The position numbers and the translations under genes were made by a program. Source: Promethearchaeota archaeon (lineage in GTDB: Archaea > Asgardarchaeota > Lokiarchaeia > Sigyniarchaeales > SOKP01). From it: 64,000 nt of DNA. This document shows positions 13,381 through 58,368 of this stretch, piece by piece. The notes below the pieces were generated by a model. That model saw only the letters and a program-made list of their open reading frames with translations. It had not been told where the DNA came from and did not search any database. Within the stretch, counting starts at the first letter, position 1. Every line of letters starts with the position of its first letter. The DNA lies in the NCBI GenBank assembly GCA_016839705.1, contig JAEOTR010000062.1, forward strand, positions 38,365-102,364. The letters run 5' to 3'.

Positions 13381-14610
13381 TTAAAAATAATTATCTTCTT
13401 CAGATTCATTTTTTTCTAGTTCTTTTTCATCTTCTTCCTTTTTCCTCTCTGATATTAGTCTAGTCTCATAAGTTGGCTTTGGTTCAGGTTCTGGAGTAGG
13501 TTCTGGAGTAGGTTCTGGAGTAGGTTCTGGAGTAGGTTCATAGACTGGTTGTGGTTCTGGTTCCGATTCAGGAATAGGCTCATAGATTGGTTGTGGTTCT
13601 GGTTCCAGTTTTGGTTCAGGAATAGGTTCATAGACTGGTTGTGGTTTTGGTTCCGATTCAGGAATAGGCTCATAGACTGGTTGTGATTCTGGTTCTGGTT
13701 CAGGAATAGGTTCATAGACTGGTTGTGGTTCTGGTTCCGGTTCTGGAGTAGGCTCATAGACTGGTTGTGGTTCTGGTTCTGGTTCTGGAGTAGGCTCATA
13801 GACTGGTTGTGGTTCTGGTTCCGGTTCTGGTTCAGGAATAGGTTCATAAAATGGTTGTGGTTCTGGTTCTGGTTCTGGAGTAGGCTCATAGACTGGTTGT
13901 GGTTCTGGTTCCGGTTCTGGTTCAGGAATAGGTTCATAGACTGGTTGTGGTTCTGGTTCCAGTTTTGGTTCAGGAATAGGTTCATAGACTGGTTGTGGTT
14001 TTGGTTCCGATTCAGGAATAGGCTCATAGACTGGTTGTGGTTCTGGTTCCGGTTCTGGTTCAGGAATAGGTTCATAAAATGGTTGTGGTTCTGGTTCTGG
14101 TTCTGGTTCAGGAATAGGTTCATAGACTGGTTGTGGTTCTGGTTCCGGTTCAGGAGTGGGTTCAAACTCTTTTATTGCTTTTGATTTTTTTTTTATCGGT
14201 TTTTTATCTATGGCACTAACCTGTAGTATTGTAAAAGGATTATTTTCAGGATTTAACATCTCAGGGCCTAAAAATATCATTTTAGGTTTAACTTTCTTTT
14301 TATTAATTCTTAATTCTAGTGTAAAATTACCCGGAGTTAGGAAATCTAAACCATCAACCTGATTTTTTAACGTAGTTTTCCATTCAATTACGTTATTTTC
14401 TATTTCGTTAATATTATCTCCAGTTTCAAGGTTAAGTTTTCTCGTGATTTTTAATTTATTTTGGCAACTTATTTTACCTTGGGCTGTATACTCTTTACTT
14501 CCTGCAGTAGTCCATCTTAAGTGAAAGCCATCTAATTGTTTCCATAAGGCATAGCCTAAGAATTGTCCGGAATCGACTTTCAAACGTCCCTTAATATTTT
14601 TTACATTCAT
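13381..14610 (-). CDS. Protein with N-terminal beta-rich domain and long (EP)nQPVYEPIP repeat tract
   Basis: Globular N-terminus ([17 protein letters not shown]...VDGLDF), >200-aa Pro/Glu repeat region, acidic tail. Confidence 0.8.
13480..14165 (-). repeat. Coding minisatellite of 36-42 bp units encoding (PE)2-3PQPVYEP(I/T)
   Basis: Recurrent ggttcatagactggttgtggttctggtt; variant blocks ([21 protein letters not shown]) each occur twice, indicating higher-order duplication. Confidence 0.9.
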
Positions 14611-15965: not shown

Positions 15966-17705
15966 ATGACGATTTTATTAAATCCTAAAGAGCATAACCG
16001 CTATTACCCCGATGAAAATTCGAGACATATAATGCTAAAAACCATTGAATTCTTCGAAAAGAAAGGTAAAGCTAAAATAAAAGAGGATGATAGGAAAAGA
16101 GTGTGGTATTCCGATTTCATCGAGTTTCAGAAACAACACGAGATTTTTGCCCAACTTTTAACTCCCGAACCTTTTGGAAAAAATGAAAATTATCGCTGGG
16201 ATACCTGGCGGATATGCGAATTTAATGAAATTCTTGGTTTTTATGGTCTAGGTTATTGGTATACCTGGCAGGTTTCAATTTTAGGTCTTGGACCAATATG
16301 GATGAGCAAAAATGAAGAGATTAAGAAAAAAGCTGCCCGTTTACTTAGAGAAGGCGCTATCTTTGCATTTGGTCTTTCAGAAAAAGCTCATGGAGCAGAT
16401 ATCTATGCAACGGAGATGTCACTTACACTACAAGAAGATGAAACATATAGGGCTAATGGAGAGAAATATTACATTGGTAATGGTAATGAGGCAGAAATGG
16501 TTTCAAATTTTGGTAAACTTGCAGATATAGATGGAAACATCCCTCATTATGACATGAAAAACAAGGATCAGTATGTGTTTTTTGTAGCTAATTATAAACA
16601 CAAAAATTATGAATTGATAAAAAATGTAGTTGATAGTCAAAACTTCGTTGCTCATTTTGCGCTCCATGATTATCCTATTACAGAAGAAGAAATCCTTTCG
16701 AAAGGTGAAAATGCTTGGAATGCGGCGTTGAATACTGTAAATGTCGGTAAGTATAATCTAGGATGGGCTTCAATTGGGATTTGTACTCATGCATTCTATG
16801 AATCTATTCATCATGCTGCGCATCGTAGATTATATAATATGTACGTTACTGATTTTCAACATGTGAAACAGAGCTTTGTAGATGCGTATACACGTTTGAT
16901 AGCAATGAAGTTATTCGGATTAAGAACTGCTGATTACATGCGGGTTGCTTCTAAAAAAGACCGGCGATACTTGCTTTATGCTCCTGTAATGAAAATGAAA
17001 ACTACAACCCAAGGTGAAGAAGTTATTAATCTCTTATGGGATGTCATCGCAGCAAAAGGTTTCGAAAAAAACATGTACTTTGAAAGCGCAGCAAGAGATA
17101 TTCGTGCTTTACCAAAGCTCGAGGGAACTGTTCACGTTAATATCGCCTTAATTTTAAAATTCATGATAAACTTCTTTATGAATCATAAAAACTATGAGGA
17201 AGTCCCCCGACAAGATCAAGCAGGAAATGATGCATTTCTATTCAATCAAGGTCCAACTAGTGGGTTGGGACGCGTTCGTCTTCATGATTGGAAACCTGCA
17301 TTTGAAAAGTACGACTTACCCAATGTTAAAATTTTCGTGGAACAAATAAAATTATTTAACCAACTTGGCACTAGAGCAATGCCCAGTATTGAACAACAAA
17401 ATGACATGGATTTCATGCTTTCTGGGATTGGTCAAATTTTTGCTCTAATAGTTTATGCTCATCTTATTATTGAAAATGCCCCCATCTATAATATTGATGA
17501 TGATACTTTAGATCAAATTTTCGATTTTCTTGTACGAGATTTCTCAACATTTGCTTTAAATCTCTATAACAAATCGAGTATCACAGCTCCTCAGATGGAA
17601 TATTGCATTCAAATGATTAAGAAACCTAATGTTGATGAGGAAAGATTCTTGAAAGTCTGGAACCTCGTACATTCCTTAAAAGATGCTTATCAAATGAATC
17701 CTTAG
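15966..17705 (+). CDS. Acyl-CoA dehydrogenase
   Basis: AFGLSEKAHGAD, ANGEKYYIGNGN, ALNTVNVGKYNLG, RALPKLEGTVHVN. Confidence 0.9.
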   Translation: MTILLNPKEHNRYYPDENSRHIMLKTIEFFEKKGKAKIKEDDRKRVWYSDFIEFQKQHEIFAQLLTPEPFGKNENYRWDTWRICEFNEILGFYGLGYWYTWQVSILGLGPIWMSKNEEIKKKAARLLREGAIFAFGLSEKAHGADIYATEMSLTLQEDETYRANGEKYYIGNGNEAEMVSNFGKLADIDGNIPHYDMKNKDQYVFFVANYKHKNYELIKNVVDSQNFVAHFALHDYPITEEEILSKGENAWNAALNTVNVGKYNLGWASIGICTHAFYESIHHAAHRRLYNMYVTDFQHVKQSFVDAYTRLIAMKLFGLRTADYMRVASKKDRRYLLYAPVMKMKTTTQGEEVINLLWDVIAAKGFEKNMYFESAARDIRALPKLEGTVHVNIALILKFMINFFMNHKNYEEVPRQDQAGNDAFLFNQGPTSGLGRVRLHDWKPAFEKYDLPNVKIFVEQIKLFNQLGTRAMPSIEQQNDMDFMLSGIGQIFALIVYAHLIIENAPIYNIDDDTLDQIFDFLVRDFSTFALNLYNKSSITAPQMEYCIQMIKKPNVDEERFLKVWNLVHSLKDAYQMNP

Positions 17706-17827
17706 TAATATTGTTAAAGAAAATAATAACTAAAAATAGATAAAAAATAAGAGGAAAAGTAAAAATTTTGTCAGTTGGATTTAGAGATACTTAATCACAA
17801 ATTGATTTTTACACGCCAATCATTAAG

Positions 17828-17977
17828 CTAATTTTCTTCCTCCTCATCCCACATATCATAATCTTCGGTTTCATCCCATTCATCGTCTTCATCATACGGA
17901 ATATCTTCGTTTGCGTAATCATCCCATTCATCATCAAACTGATTTCTCCTATTTCCATCATAATTGTATCGGTTCAT
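17828..17977 (-). CDS. 49-aa acidic Trp/Tyr-rich microprotein
   Basis: MNRYNYDGNRRNQFDDEWDDYANEDIPYDEDDEWDETEDYDMWDEEEEN; RBS ggagg just upstream. Confidence 0.7.
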   Translation of the reverse strand: MNRYNYDGNRRNQFDDEWDDYANEDIPYDEDDEWDETEDYDMWDEEEEN

Positions 17978-18302
17978 TTTTACTTCCTCCATATTATCTT
18001 TTATTAAATATAATTGTATTTATGGTATATTATCAATTATATCATATACTTATACTAGTATTTAAACCTTACTAATGAAAGTTGATATCACTAATGTTAT
18101 TCTCTTCTATACCATATCTCGTTAGTATATGAGTAATGGTTTGATATCATTTAGATCAGAACCACTTGGATGAAACTCTCTAATGGAATTATAGAAATTA
18201 GTAACTAAAACAAAAATATCTCTCAATAAAAATCTCAAAATATTATTAAACACTCTTGAATTTAATACCTGAGACTTTATTAAAAAAATTACAATTTTTA
18301 AA

Positions 18303-18821
18303 TTAATTAGTAAGTTTTTGGATGAATAATGAACTATCGGAAATATAGTTAGCTGACGAAGTCCCATAAACTGCTACGGTAACGTTATGCACTCCCGCTA
18401 ATAAATCATACCTTACATCTTGTAATGGTATCATGAAATTTACTGTTCCAACTCCGTTGAAAGTTCCTATTTCAGCATGCTGATCTGTATCAATTACTCC
18501 ATCTACGCGGAAATAAACCCAAATTCTAGACCAAGCTAAAGTAATCCCTTCAGTGTGAGCCCAAGCCATAAAGCTAAAATACACAGATTCATTTACTCCC
18601 AGTTCGAATTCAATAGTCAAACCAGAAAATGTTAAGTATGTGTTGGGGGGATTACATACAAAAGCAGTGTCATTTTCTTTATACCATGTAGTTTGCACAC
18701 CAAAATTTAATAGTTGGGTTTCTAAATTCGATACAGTTAACCAAGCAAAACCTCCTAACCCTATACCCCCTGCTCCTAAAATTAATCCAATTAAACCTAA
18801 TATAGCTCCACCTTTACCCAA
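18303..18821 (-). CDS. N-terminally anchored, beta-rich secreted/surface protein
   Basis: GKGGAILGLIGLILGAGGIGLG anchor; RBS ggaggt; TTG start. Confidence 0.7.
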   Translation of the reverse strand: MGKGGAILGLIGLILGAGGIGLGGFAWLTVSNLETQLLNFGVQTTWYKENDTAFVCNPPNTYLTFSGLTIEFELGVNESVYFSFMAWAHTEGITLAWSRIWVYFRVDGVIDTDQHAEIGTFNGVGTVNFMIPLQDVRYDLLAGVHNVTVAVYGTSSANYISDSSLFIQKLTN

Positions 18822-18945
18822 AATTATCTACCTCCATTAGAAATTAGATTATATGAAATTTTTTTTTGTAAAAATGTAAAAAAGATGTTAAGTTCTTTTA
18901 TCTGCTCTGCTTTAAAAATACATCTCTTCGGGCTAAAAAGGAGAG

Positions 18946-19557
18946 TTAAAACCTTGATTCATTCTTGATGACTTCTTCGAAAACTTCATAGGGTTGAGCA
19001 CCGATCACGAATTGGTTACCAATTAAAAAAGTCGGTACGCCATTAATCCCGCGCCTTCCTAATTCAAACATATTTTTCTTCAACCGATTGACGGGTTCAT
19101 CACTTTCTATATAAGTCATTATCTCTTCCTTATTCAATCCAACGGATTCTGCAAGTTCTATCAGTAGAGAAAGATCTCCAATATCTTTCCCTTCTAACCA
19201 ATAAGATTCAAATACTAATTTGTGAAACTTATCATATAACCCTTTAGTTCGTGCGAATTCAGAGATGAATAATGCTAATTGCGAATTCGGCAACGTTTTG
19301 GTAAACTTTAAGGTAAGACCCTCCTCATCTGCTAACCTTTTTACATTTGCCATAACCATCTCTAAGTAGTCAGGCGGAAATGATAAACCTTCCATCTTAA
19401 ATCCTTGCTTGGGGGTGTTAGGATGAATTTCGAATGGTTCCCACTCTACATCAAGATTATATTCTTCTTTAAGCCTTTCTATTCGGTAGAAACCGATATA
19501 ACAAAAAGGACAGATATAATCGGAGTAAACAATTACTTTCAATTTTTTTTGACTCAT
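18946..19557 (-). CDS. DsbA/FrnE-family oxidoreductase
   Basis: YSDYICPFCYIG, GINGVPTF, GAQP. Confidence 0.9.
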   Translation of the reverse strand: MSQKKLKVIVYSDYICPFCYIGFYRIERLKEEYNLDVEWEPFEIHPNTPKQGFKMEGLSFPPDYLEMVMANVKRLADEEGLTLKFTKTLPNSQLALFISEFARTKGLYDKFHKLVFESYWLEGKDIGDLSLLIELAESVGLNKEEIMTYIESDEPVNRLKKNMFELGRRGINGVPTFLIGNQFVIGAQPYEVFEEVIKNESRF

Positions 19558-20504: not shown

Positions 20505-20696
20505 TTATTTCTCCTCTTTTTTAACTATATATGGATATTTATCAGTAAGTTCAAACAAGTGTGGATAATTTAATTTCCATCTACGAGATTTGAGAATTTT
20601 CTTCTTAATCTTTTGTCTGTGAATTACTTTTCTACTAACTCTATTACGTGGATATTTTGTTTTCTTTTTTCTTTGCCTTTGATATAAAATTGACAT
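20505..20696 (-). CDS. Small highly basic protein
   Basis: 63 aa, K/R-rich; gaggtg upstream; T-tract downstream. Confidence 0.55.
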   Translation of the reverse strand: MSILYQRQRKKKTKYPRNRVSRKVIHRQKIKKKILKSRRWKLNYPHLFELTDKYPYIVKKEEK

Positions 20697-58194: not shown

Positions 58195-58368
58195 ATGGAA
58201 AAAAAGAATCTAAATAAATCTAAAAAGAAAGATGGATTAAACAACGACCAAGACTCTTATAATGACAATGGTGACGATTACGATAATGAAGAATATAATG
58301 ATGGAAATTGGTATGATGAAGAGGAAGATGATGTCGAAGATGATGATAGATATCATTCCCACGATTAG
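58195..58368 (+). CDS. 57-aa microprotein with basic N-terminus and acidic Tyr/Trp tail
   Basis: MEKKNLNKSKKKDGLNNDQDSYNDNGDDYDNEEYNDGNWYDEEEDDVEDDDRYHSHD; below ORF-track cutoff. Confidence 0.6.
   Translation: MEKKNLNKSKKKDGLNNDQDSYNDNGDDYDNEEYNDGNWYDEEEDDVEDDDRYHSHD

Follow-up and report, generated by a model that had tools for sequence, protein, structure and literature searches.

A conserved acidic tryptophan microprotein gene and similar micro-gene families in one genus of Asgard archaea

The stretch of DNA considered here, called the window, comprises 64,000 nucleotides (nt) of contig JAEOTR010000062.1 from a Promethearchaeota archaeon (assembly GCA_016839705.1), and the element under study is a small gene on its minus strand, at 17828-17977, whose predicted product is a 49-amino acid (aa) acidic protein with three tryptophans. 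The source genome (3.36 Mb, 31% G+C) is designated G000, and other G-numbers indicate genomes of its relatives. Coordinates refer to the window unless a contig is named. The micro-gene and the features that overlap or precede it are listed below; ORF denotes open reading frame and dN/dS the ratio of nonsynonymous to synonymous substitution rates.

17828-17977, minus strand: coding sequence of the 49-aa acidic tryptophan microprotein, with start codon ATG at 17975-17977 and stop codon TAG at 17828-17830, assigned from homologues and dN/dS.
17986-17990, minus strand: Shine-Dalgarno (SD) sequence GGAGG, 8 nt 5' of the start codon, invariant in the three genomic homologues.
17990-17992, minus strand: upstream in-frame ATG that would give a 54-aa form, probably not the working start; it overlaps the SD and is AAG in G087.
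17978-18036, minus strand: inferred 5' leader, about 57-59 nt long, from the invariant TTGA up to the start codon.
18033-18036, minus strand: TTGA, a putative initiator that follows the TATA box by about 23-30 nt.
18059-18072, minus strand: TATA box TTTAAATA (18059-18066) with GTAAGG resembling a B recognition element (18067-18072), conserved in G097 and G087.
17809-17961, minus strand: overlapping ORF of 50 aa in the +1 frame, rich in Met and Lys and open in all three genomes, with dN/dS of 0.99-1.44.
17775-17850, minus strand: weak Rfam match to snoR31, overlapping the 3' end of the micro-gene and taken as chance.

The reading frame is open from 17828 to 17992 and translates as MEEVK-MNRYNYDGNRRNQFDDEWDDYANEDIPYDEDDEWDETEDYDMWDEEEEN. 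An earlier note on this DNA had claimed a 49-aa ORF with a ggagg ribosome-binding site, and both are present: the ORF has 49 codons, and GGAGG lies 8 nt 5' of its ATG. The three strings quoted from the product, FDDEWDD, DEDDEWDE and DYDMWDEEEE, are all found in it exactly. The 49-mer contains 13 Asp and 10 Glu (23 acidic residues together), 3 Trp, 5 Tyr and 1 Phe, has a net charge of about -20, and is already listed with identical sequence in a protein collection as a predicted protein of the source contig (P0002). Such sequences are rare in this organism. A six-frame scan of the whole 3.36-Mb genome reveals just five small ORFs (30-130 aa) with an Asp plus Glu content of at least 38%, and the motif [DE]2-W-[DE]2 occurs in only six ORFs of any size, of which the 49-aa ORF has two copies. 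This rarity suggests that the ORF is more than a chance occurrence.

Homologs were recovered by several routes. Querying 5.8 billion protein clusters through a word index brought up, beside the window's own product, three homologues (51-55 aa, 53-79% identity), an exhaustive phmmer search of 1.84 billion representatives added two more (62-64% identity, E 1.5e-7 and 6e-6), and a profile search of genomes located copies in G097 and G087. The family is thus present in 3 of 154 genomes of the order, G000 included, all from a single genus. With the window's copy the seven homologues form an alignment of eight sequences, whose numbering is used for residues hereafter (the 49-mer corresponds to alignment residues 6-54); the comparisons at the DNA level cover three of the eight members, those of G000, G097 and G087. 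The sources of the homologues are labeled as Promethearchaeota, Thorarchaeota and Hodarchaeota metagenome-assembled genomes, and two of the homologues stand at NCBI as 'hypothetical protein'. Searching 400 genomes of the phylum with the 8-sequence profile gave convincing matches only in the same three genomes (3 of the 54 of the genus). Weak matches in G015 and G313 are, on inspection, unrelated sequence, and further weak matches in G069, G367 and G105 have E values of 0.02-0.1 and lie in short frames or contain internal stops. Pattern searches of genome contigs and metagenome contigs with the alignment produced pattern matches of which none was confirmed by tblastn, and a degenerate DNA pattern for DYDMWDEEE had 0 matches in either set. 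No longer, fused form was present among 7997 scored candidates from a search with the alignment, which is weak evidence. In the ESM Atlas the best feature scores, 0.78-0.81, belong to clusters that are unnamed or called 'highly acidic protein', and are below the level of a usable lead.

Invariant in all eight sequences are Y26, P32, Y33, D34, D46, M47, W48, E52 and E53, and the conserved blocks can be written as (D/E)EWD(D/E)Y, (I/V)PYD(E/D)(D/E) and (D/E)YDMWD(E/D)EE. Conservation of the tryptophan positions, on which the earlier note had let its proposal depend, is borne out for one of the three and falls short for the others. W48, in DYDMWD, is kept in 8 of 8 sequences and is the only invariant Trp; W23 is kept in seven, being Asp in G097; and W39, the Trp of DEDDEWDE, is kept in five, being deleted in two and absent in G087, whose Tyr sits one residue further on.

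Comparison of the three copies for which DNA is available (Nei-Gojobori) gives dN/dS values of 0.27, 0.17 and 0.11 in the acidic frame; the corresponding values are 0.99-1.44 for the +1 frame and 0.62-1.51 for the +2 frame. As judged from these substitution ratios, purifying selection acts on the acidic frame. The overlapping +1-frame ORF is regarded as a by-product of GAT/GAA-rich coding and not as a gene, because dN/dS in that frame is about 1. The same comparison bears on the idea that the region is no protein gene, and that the frame is open by chance in purine-rich DNA or belongs to a small RNA. Two other frames are open across the region and the gene is known here from sequence alone, both of which would suit that idea, but dN/dS is well under 1 in the acidic frame only, the SD is kept at a fixed spacing despite an exchange of ATG and TTG as start codons, no Rfam family is matched at threshold, and the leader has no conserved structure. 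The best Rfam match, the C/D-box snoR31, scores 23.6 bits (E 0.65), below its gathering score of 44. A chance ORF or small RNA is therefore scarcely credible and already largely refuted.

The choice of start codon is informed by G087, where the upstream ATG is replaced by AAG and the sole usable start is a TTG, 8 nt after GGAGG, at the exact site of the window's second ATG. These two replacements favor the 49-codon model over the 54-codon model. The profile alignment of this family with a related one, described below, begins at the Met of the 49-aa form and backs that start. Two database homologues were called from the downstream one of the two starts, and two predicted homologues read Leu at the site of the start codon (MEEVKL and MEEAKL), a statement that holds for the protein and not the DNA. 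In G000, GGAGG is found 5' of 2.7% of 1896 long ORFs and of 0.6% at a control position, a 4.5-fold difference. Genes led by an SD are a minority here, and the micro-gene's spacing of 8 nt is typical of them, since most GGAGG spacings in the genome are 7-12 nt. The approximately 100 nt upstream of the gene are 73-84% identical between species, and the DNA past the stop codon 23-46%. On these comparative grounds, 17828-17977 on the minus strand is a real, selected, independently transcribed gene led by an SD. The earlier note's description of a free acidic-aromatic peptide, encoded by a stand-alone Asgard gene, is accordingly upheld by the homologues, the conserved SD and the dN/dS values.

The gene is not the only one of its kind. 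Scanning the source genome revealed three other short ORFs, likewise acidic and aromatic and each with a TATA box, listed below; the family of the window's 49-aa gene is called family 1.

Contig C9 of G000, 78178-78291 (locus L079:1501-1611), minus strand: founder of family 2, 37 aa, ...DDEWDEDEDYDD...EDWEED, from the genome scan.
Contig C9 of G000, 70541-70705 (locus L136), plus strand: 54-aa founder of a third family (54-59 aa) of the Lys-head/Tyr-acidic type, found in 13 of 54 genomes.
Window 58195-58368, plus strand: fourth family, 57 aa (MEKKNLNKSKKK...DDYDNEEYNDGNWYDEEEDD...), with a TATA-like box about 70 nt upstream.

Of the 54 genomes of the genus, 20 contain family 2, whose members have 37-55 aa; beyond the genus, the other 346 genomes of the phylum yielded one weak match (E 0.0016, inside a 352-aa frame). 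In the 18 aligned members the head is Lys-rich, the body acidic and the tryptophans W18 and W34 invariant; 10 of the 18 contain W-x3-W. At 17 of 20 loci the start codon (ATG, TTG or GTG) follows an SD-like motif (AGAGG, GGAGA or GAGAT) at a distance of 8 nt in 14 cases, 7 nt in two and 5 nt in the remaining one. The upstream region of about 115 nt is highly conserved, and the usual flanking genes are a methyltransferase-like gene and a MobA-like gene.

The relationship between families 1 and 2 is apparent both in the proteins and in the DNA ahead of them. Profile comparison with hhalign gives a probability of 81% (E 1.3e-5) along a colinear path through the start Met, the first Trp, the (I/V)xYD block and the second Trp, a score that is possibly inflated by composition, as both families are acidic and of low complexity. 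The 120 nt upstream of the two families also align colinearly, with TATA box, TTGA and SD invariant; against the family-2 regions, none of 400 control upstream regions scores as high as those of family 1 (z 3.2-3.6), and this test is supportive and not conclusive, since the controls are slightly less AT-rich (0.77 versus 0.81-0.85). The family-2 counterpart of the TATA box is AGAAACATTTAAATAT, conserved across that family, and TTGA recurs without change in all 20 upstream regions that were aligned from the two families; we infer that transcription starts near it. A structured regulatory leader RNA was considered and rejected: RNAalifold consensus-fold energies are 0.0 for the 17 leaders of family 2, 0.0 again for the full set of 20 rows and -1.6 for the three leaders of family 1, so that no conserved leader fold was found among them. 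Families 1 and 2 are probably paralogues that were duplicated together with their promoter. Family 1 would then probably be the rarest branch of a micro-gene superfamily confined to one Asgard genus, whose members probably share one layout, a short head that is neutral or basic and then an acidic tail bearing Trp, Tyr and Phe, with homologous promoter, leader and ribosome-binding site.

In the third family a basic coiled-coil protein (isoelectric point 9.1-9.8) is encoded at all 10 loci examined; at two inspected loci it has 218 aa and lies directly downstream on the same strand, starting about 60-100 nt on. This protein is a candidate partner of the Lys-head/Tyr-acidic family. Three further genomes of the genus have homologs of the fourth family, at 72-81% identity, which brings its count to 4 of 54. 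Families 1 and 2 match no Pfam family, and their database entries are hypothetical proteins only. By the evidence of purifying selection or conservation, this one Asgard genus keeps at least four such micro-gene families.

AlphaFold2, run with the 8-row alignment, assigns no secondary structure to the 49-aa protein, with a predicted local distance difference test value (pLDDT) of 57 and a predicted template modeling score (pTM) of 0.12, and the protein is thus predicted to be fully disordered. Its best-conserved residues are non-acidic (Pro, Tyr, Met and Trp), which suggests specific contacts rather than bulk charge. By analogy with DSS1/Sem1, CSNAP, prothymosin-alpha and the acidic-aromatic motifs that bind histones, the reading favored here, tentatively and at somewhat less than even confidence, is that the microprotein is a disordered polyanionic ligand that applies acidic charge and aromatic anchors to a basic partner. 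The acidic residues would steer the protein to a positively charged surface of the partner, and the conserved aromatics, above all the invariant (I/V)PYD and DMW, would dock in hydrophobic pockets and give specificity. The protein would in this way be a competitor of nucleic acid or of another ligand, or a chaperone of a basic protein. Two observations agree with this reading: aromatic pairs 2-3 residues apart in the acidic chain match the loose pattern of the Dss1 motif DisUBM, set out below, and histones are the only basic class among the partner classes checked from those that the earlier note had proposed, a check that did not extend to tetratricopeptide repeat (TPR) proteins.

The composition may also be read without a specific partner, as a bulk polyanion whose role, in the manner of 'hero' proteins, would be to keep other proteins from aggregating, or which would buffer divalent cations. 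The extreme composition and the predicted disorder fit this possibility, as do the promoter and SD, which suggest high expression, and the coexistence in the genus of several unrelated-looking acidic micro-gene families. The most conserved residues are nevertheless non-acidic (P32, Y33, M47, W48 and Y26, and W18 and W34 in family 2); a pure charge role would not need them, and a bulk polyanion is considered unlikely.

Several findings weigh against the disordered-ligand reading, together with the two limits noted above on the comparison of families 1 and 2. Two of the three tryptophans are not invariant. The distribution of the family is very narrow (3 of 400 phylum genomes), and the next-closest relatives, G021, G015, G013 and G094, lack the acidic ORF at the syntenic position, from which it follows that any function is dispensable or lineage-specific. 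No conserved operon partner exists among G000, G097 and G087, whose neighboring genes differ. The resemblance to proteins of the DSS1 type is one of composition and motif pattern, with no Pfam match and no PDB sequence match beyond chance, and everything known of the micro-gene here has been read from nucleotide and protein sequence.

The micro-gene stands alone in its neighborhood. A gene for a 172-aa membrane protein lies 310 nt upstream on the same strand, and a gene for an acyl-CoA-dehydrogenase-like (ACAD) protein is convergent with it; nearby in the window are genes for a DsbA-like protein, a Ras-family GTPase and a flavodoxin/4Fe-4S protein. G097 has the same neighborhood with the ACAD gene on the other side of the micro-gene, and in G087 the region is rearranged, with an NYN-like neighbor. 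Family 1 has no conserved basic neighbor, and neither Cas2 nor PaaX_C of Pfam is matched in G000. No acidic ORF is found beside the ACAD orthologues of 15 other genomes. This absence, and that from the syntenic sites of relatives, indicate a patchy accessory gene of a subclade.

Two further roles were considered in the light of this neighborhood. A Trp leader peptide acting by attenuation is rejected, as the downstream gene is not conserved and the whole peptide is under selection. A DNA mimic belonging to a mobile element or directed against host defence is unsupported, the locus lying in syntenic chromosomal DNA with no integrase or phage genes in the flanks examined.

Three other genes of the region may be recorded in their own right. 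The ACAD gene (15966-17705, plus strand) is 83-87% identical across the genus and has a different gene context in almost every genome; these changes of context, and its lying to one side of the micro-gene in G000 and to the other in G097, mark it as an apparently often-relocated gene. At 20505-20696 on the minus strand is a 63-aa ORF very rich in Lys and Arg (MSILYQRQRKKKTKYPRNR...), a homologue of which adjoins the ACAD gene in G008; it has no Pfam match and sits 2.5 kb from the acidic micro-gene, a matter of proximity only. The 409-aa protein encoded at 13381-14610 (minus strand) consists largely of Pro/Glu repeats, and its sole Pfam match, below threshold, is to procyclic acidic repetitive protein.

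Turning to particular partners, the microprotein could be a chaperone of histones or other DNA-binding proteins, or a nucleic-acid mimic, that covers the DNA-binding face of archaeal histones or of another chromatin protein. The five histones encoded by G000 are basic, their net charges ranging from +3.6 to +10.5, and in two of them the N-terminus is Lys-rich. Acidic stretches with aromatic anchors are, moreover, the usual motif of histone chaperones. Against such a role, histones are present in 31 of 31 genomes searched and the microprotein in only 3 of the 54 of the genus, and there is no linkage to a histone gene. A complex prediction of a histone homodimer (16-row alignment) with the 49-mer, made without controls, scored 0.01 against a mark of 0.32 and counts neither way. 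The histone role is accorded a small chance.

A second group of candidate partners comprises domains of the eukaryotic type: the microprotein might be a free short-linear-motif ligand of a mu-homology-type, TPR or longin/roadblock domain. Trp motifs with acidic flanks are described as a curated ligand class of the delta-COP mu-homology domain, which the Trp-based acidic motifs of Dsl1 and ArfGAP bind (ELM 2020, PMC7145657; PMC4868844). The W-x3-W of family 2 and the Ras-family GTPase in the neighborhood of the micro-gene point the same way. Nevertheless, Pfam Adap_comp_sub (PF00928) has no match in the genome at E <= 0.01 (best E 0.135), family 1 contains W-x2-Y and F-x3-W and no W-x(1-6)-[WF] pair in that order, and no co-localization with a gene for such a domain was seen. 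The W-acidic motif recognized by kinesin light chain has Leu or Met two residues before the Trp and Asp or Glu after it, whereas all three tryptophans of the microprotein have Asp at -2. A motif ligand of this kind is rather improbable. Quite improbable too is the wider proposition that the microproteins are diffusible, free-standing motifs of eukaryotic type which tune a eukaryotic-signature domain (for example TPR, longin or actin-related); if true, it would mean that motif-domain regulation of a proto-trafficking or cytoskeletal machine predates eukaryotes.

The earlier note had drawn attention above all to WASP. On that view the Trp-acidic motifs, like those of the WASP/WAVE A segment or the DDW of cortactin, would make the microprotein a ligand that controls filament nucleation by Asgard actin-related proteins (ARPs). 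DEDDEWDE is nearly the same string as the WASP C-terminus, and at the motif level an acidic segment with a conserved Trp, DMW(D/A)[DE]3-4, is present in 8 of 8 sequences. The Asgard actin setting that the note invoked is consistent with the genome, which encodes three actin-family proteins scoring 441, 294 and 206 bits against Pfam Actin, two of them ARP-like; the Ras-family GTPase, the five histones and the source labels of the homologues also agree with an Asgard origin. The other comparisons lend the WASP view no support. Neither WH2 nor any other Pfam-A family is matched at E <= 10 (hmmscan, 4 family members), AlphaFold2 gives no helix that could serve as the C element, and the stretch that precedes the acidic runs of the 49-mer is rich in Asn, Arg and Tyr. 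A profile search of PDB sequences returned no WASP-family chain at E <= 10, its only matches being to an unrelated staphylococcal protein (E 0.5-1.2). ARPC4 (PF05856), the sole Arp2/3 subunit family searched, reaches at best 13.6 bits against a cut-off of 22.2, in a frame with an internal stop. The actin-family proteins have net charges of -14, -11 and -10.5, which makes them poor targets for a peptide of charge -20, and the Trp of DEDDEWDE is the least conserved of the three. Profilin and gelsolin are the only Asgard actin regulators named in the part of a review that bears on them (PMC12050087), which likewise counts against a WASP-type ligand. The link to WASP and Arp2/3 thus finds no backing, and a WASP-type role is highly improbable; the likeness is best explained as convergence and not homology, in agreement with the note's own caveat that short acidic motifs converge easily.

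An unusual actin-family protein was encountered at contig C27 of G000, 17484-19001, minus strand (locus L026). It has 506 aa, and its C-terminal extension, which carries four CxxC pairs, resembles a pair of zinc ribbons; fused to an actin-like protein, these would be out of the ordinary.

A further possibility is a subunit like DSS1/Sem1, which glues a larger complex together or binds a ubiquitin-like protein weakly through aromatic pairs. Size, charge, disorder and Trp content match those given for DSS1 and CSNAP in PMC8442969 and PMC9381478, two aromatic pairs of the microprotein fit the pattern called DisUBM, and three ubiquitin-like ORFs of G000 score above the Pfam cut-off. On the other hand, no Pfam family, DSS1_SEM1 (PF05160) included, and no PDB chain of DSS1/Sem1 is matched at E <= 10, the two ubiquitin-like proteins that were extracted (of the three) are themselves acidic (-7 and -9), and the genus-restricted spread is unlike that of a core complex subunit. 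A search of the genome for PCI domains gave weak matches of at most 24.5 bits, as it did in all 14 control genomes, and counts neither way. A DSS1-like subunit is very unlikely. Set against the disordered-ligand reading, then, each of these partners is assigned a low probability.

Taken by itself the gene is dispensable, narrow in its distribution and specific to one lineage. In eukaryotes, DSS1/Sem1, CSNAP, prothymosin and other proteins of this kind, small, acidic and disordered with aromatic anchors, serve as glue or as competitor subunits, and the partners of the microproteins, once found, could reveal a new regulatory layer in the closest prokaryotic relatives of eukaryotes. A limited literature search found no earlier description of family 1 or of the superfamily.

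Among known systems, the WASP/WAVE A segment shares with the microprotein a single Trp enclosed by a run of Asp and Glu. It differs in that the 49-mer lacks the WH2 and C elements, its Trp is not at the extreme C-terminus, and the Trp of DEDDEWDE is lost in 3 of 8 sequences.

The closer likeness is to DSS1/Sem1 and CSNAP. CSNAP has 57 residues and DSS1 has 70, compared with 49 in the microprotein. They too are small, strongly acidic and disordered, and the accounts of them in PMC8442969 and PMC9381478 attribute their binding to conserved Trp and Phe within acidic runs. Unlike them, the micro-gene is archaeal and confined to one genus, its product lacks a C-terminal helix, and there is no detectable homology. 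The DisUBM of Dss1 is described in PMC9381478 as two aromatics 2-3 residues apart in a negatively charged disordered stretch, with millimolar affinities for ubiquitin. F19-x3-W23-x2-Y26 and Y45-x2-W48 fit this loose pattern, the second pair in 7 of 8 sequences.

The delta-COP di-Trp motif (ELM LIG_deltaCOP1_diTrp_1) consists of a Trp followed within a few residues by Trp or Phe in an acidic context. The Trp with negative flanks in a disordered chain, as the entry is outlined in PMC7145657, is shared by the microproteins, and the spacing is found in those family-2 members that have W-x3-W. Family 1 has no di-Trp, and the micro-genes encode free-standing proteins, not a loop of a larger protein. 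Prothymosin-alpha, a polyanionic disordered protein that binds a polycationic partner (linker histone H1), has no aromatic anchors, whereas the aromatics of the microprotein are its best-conserved positions. The micro-gene families are an archaeal, genus-restricted version of the acidic disordered proteins with aromatic anchors.

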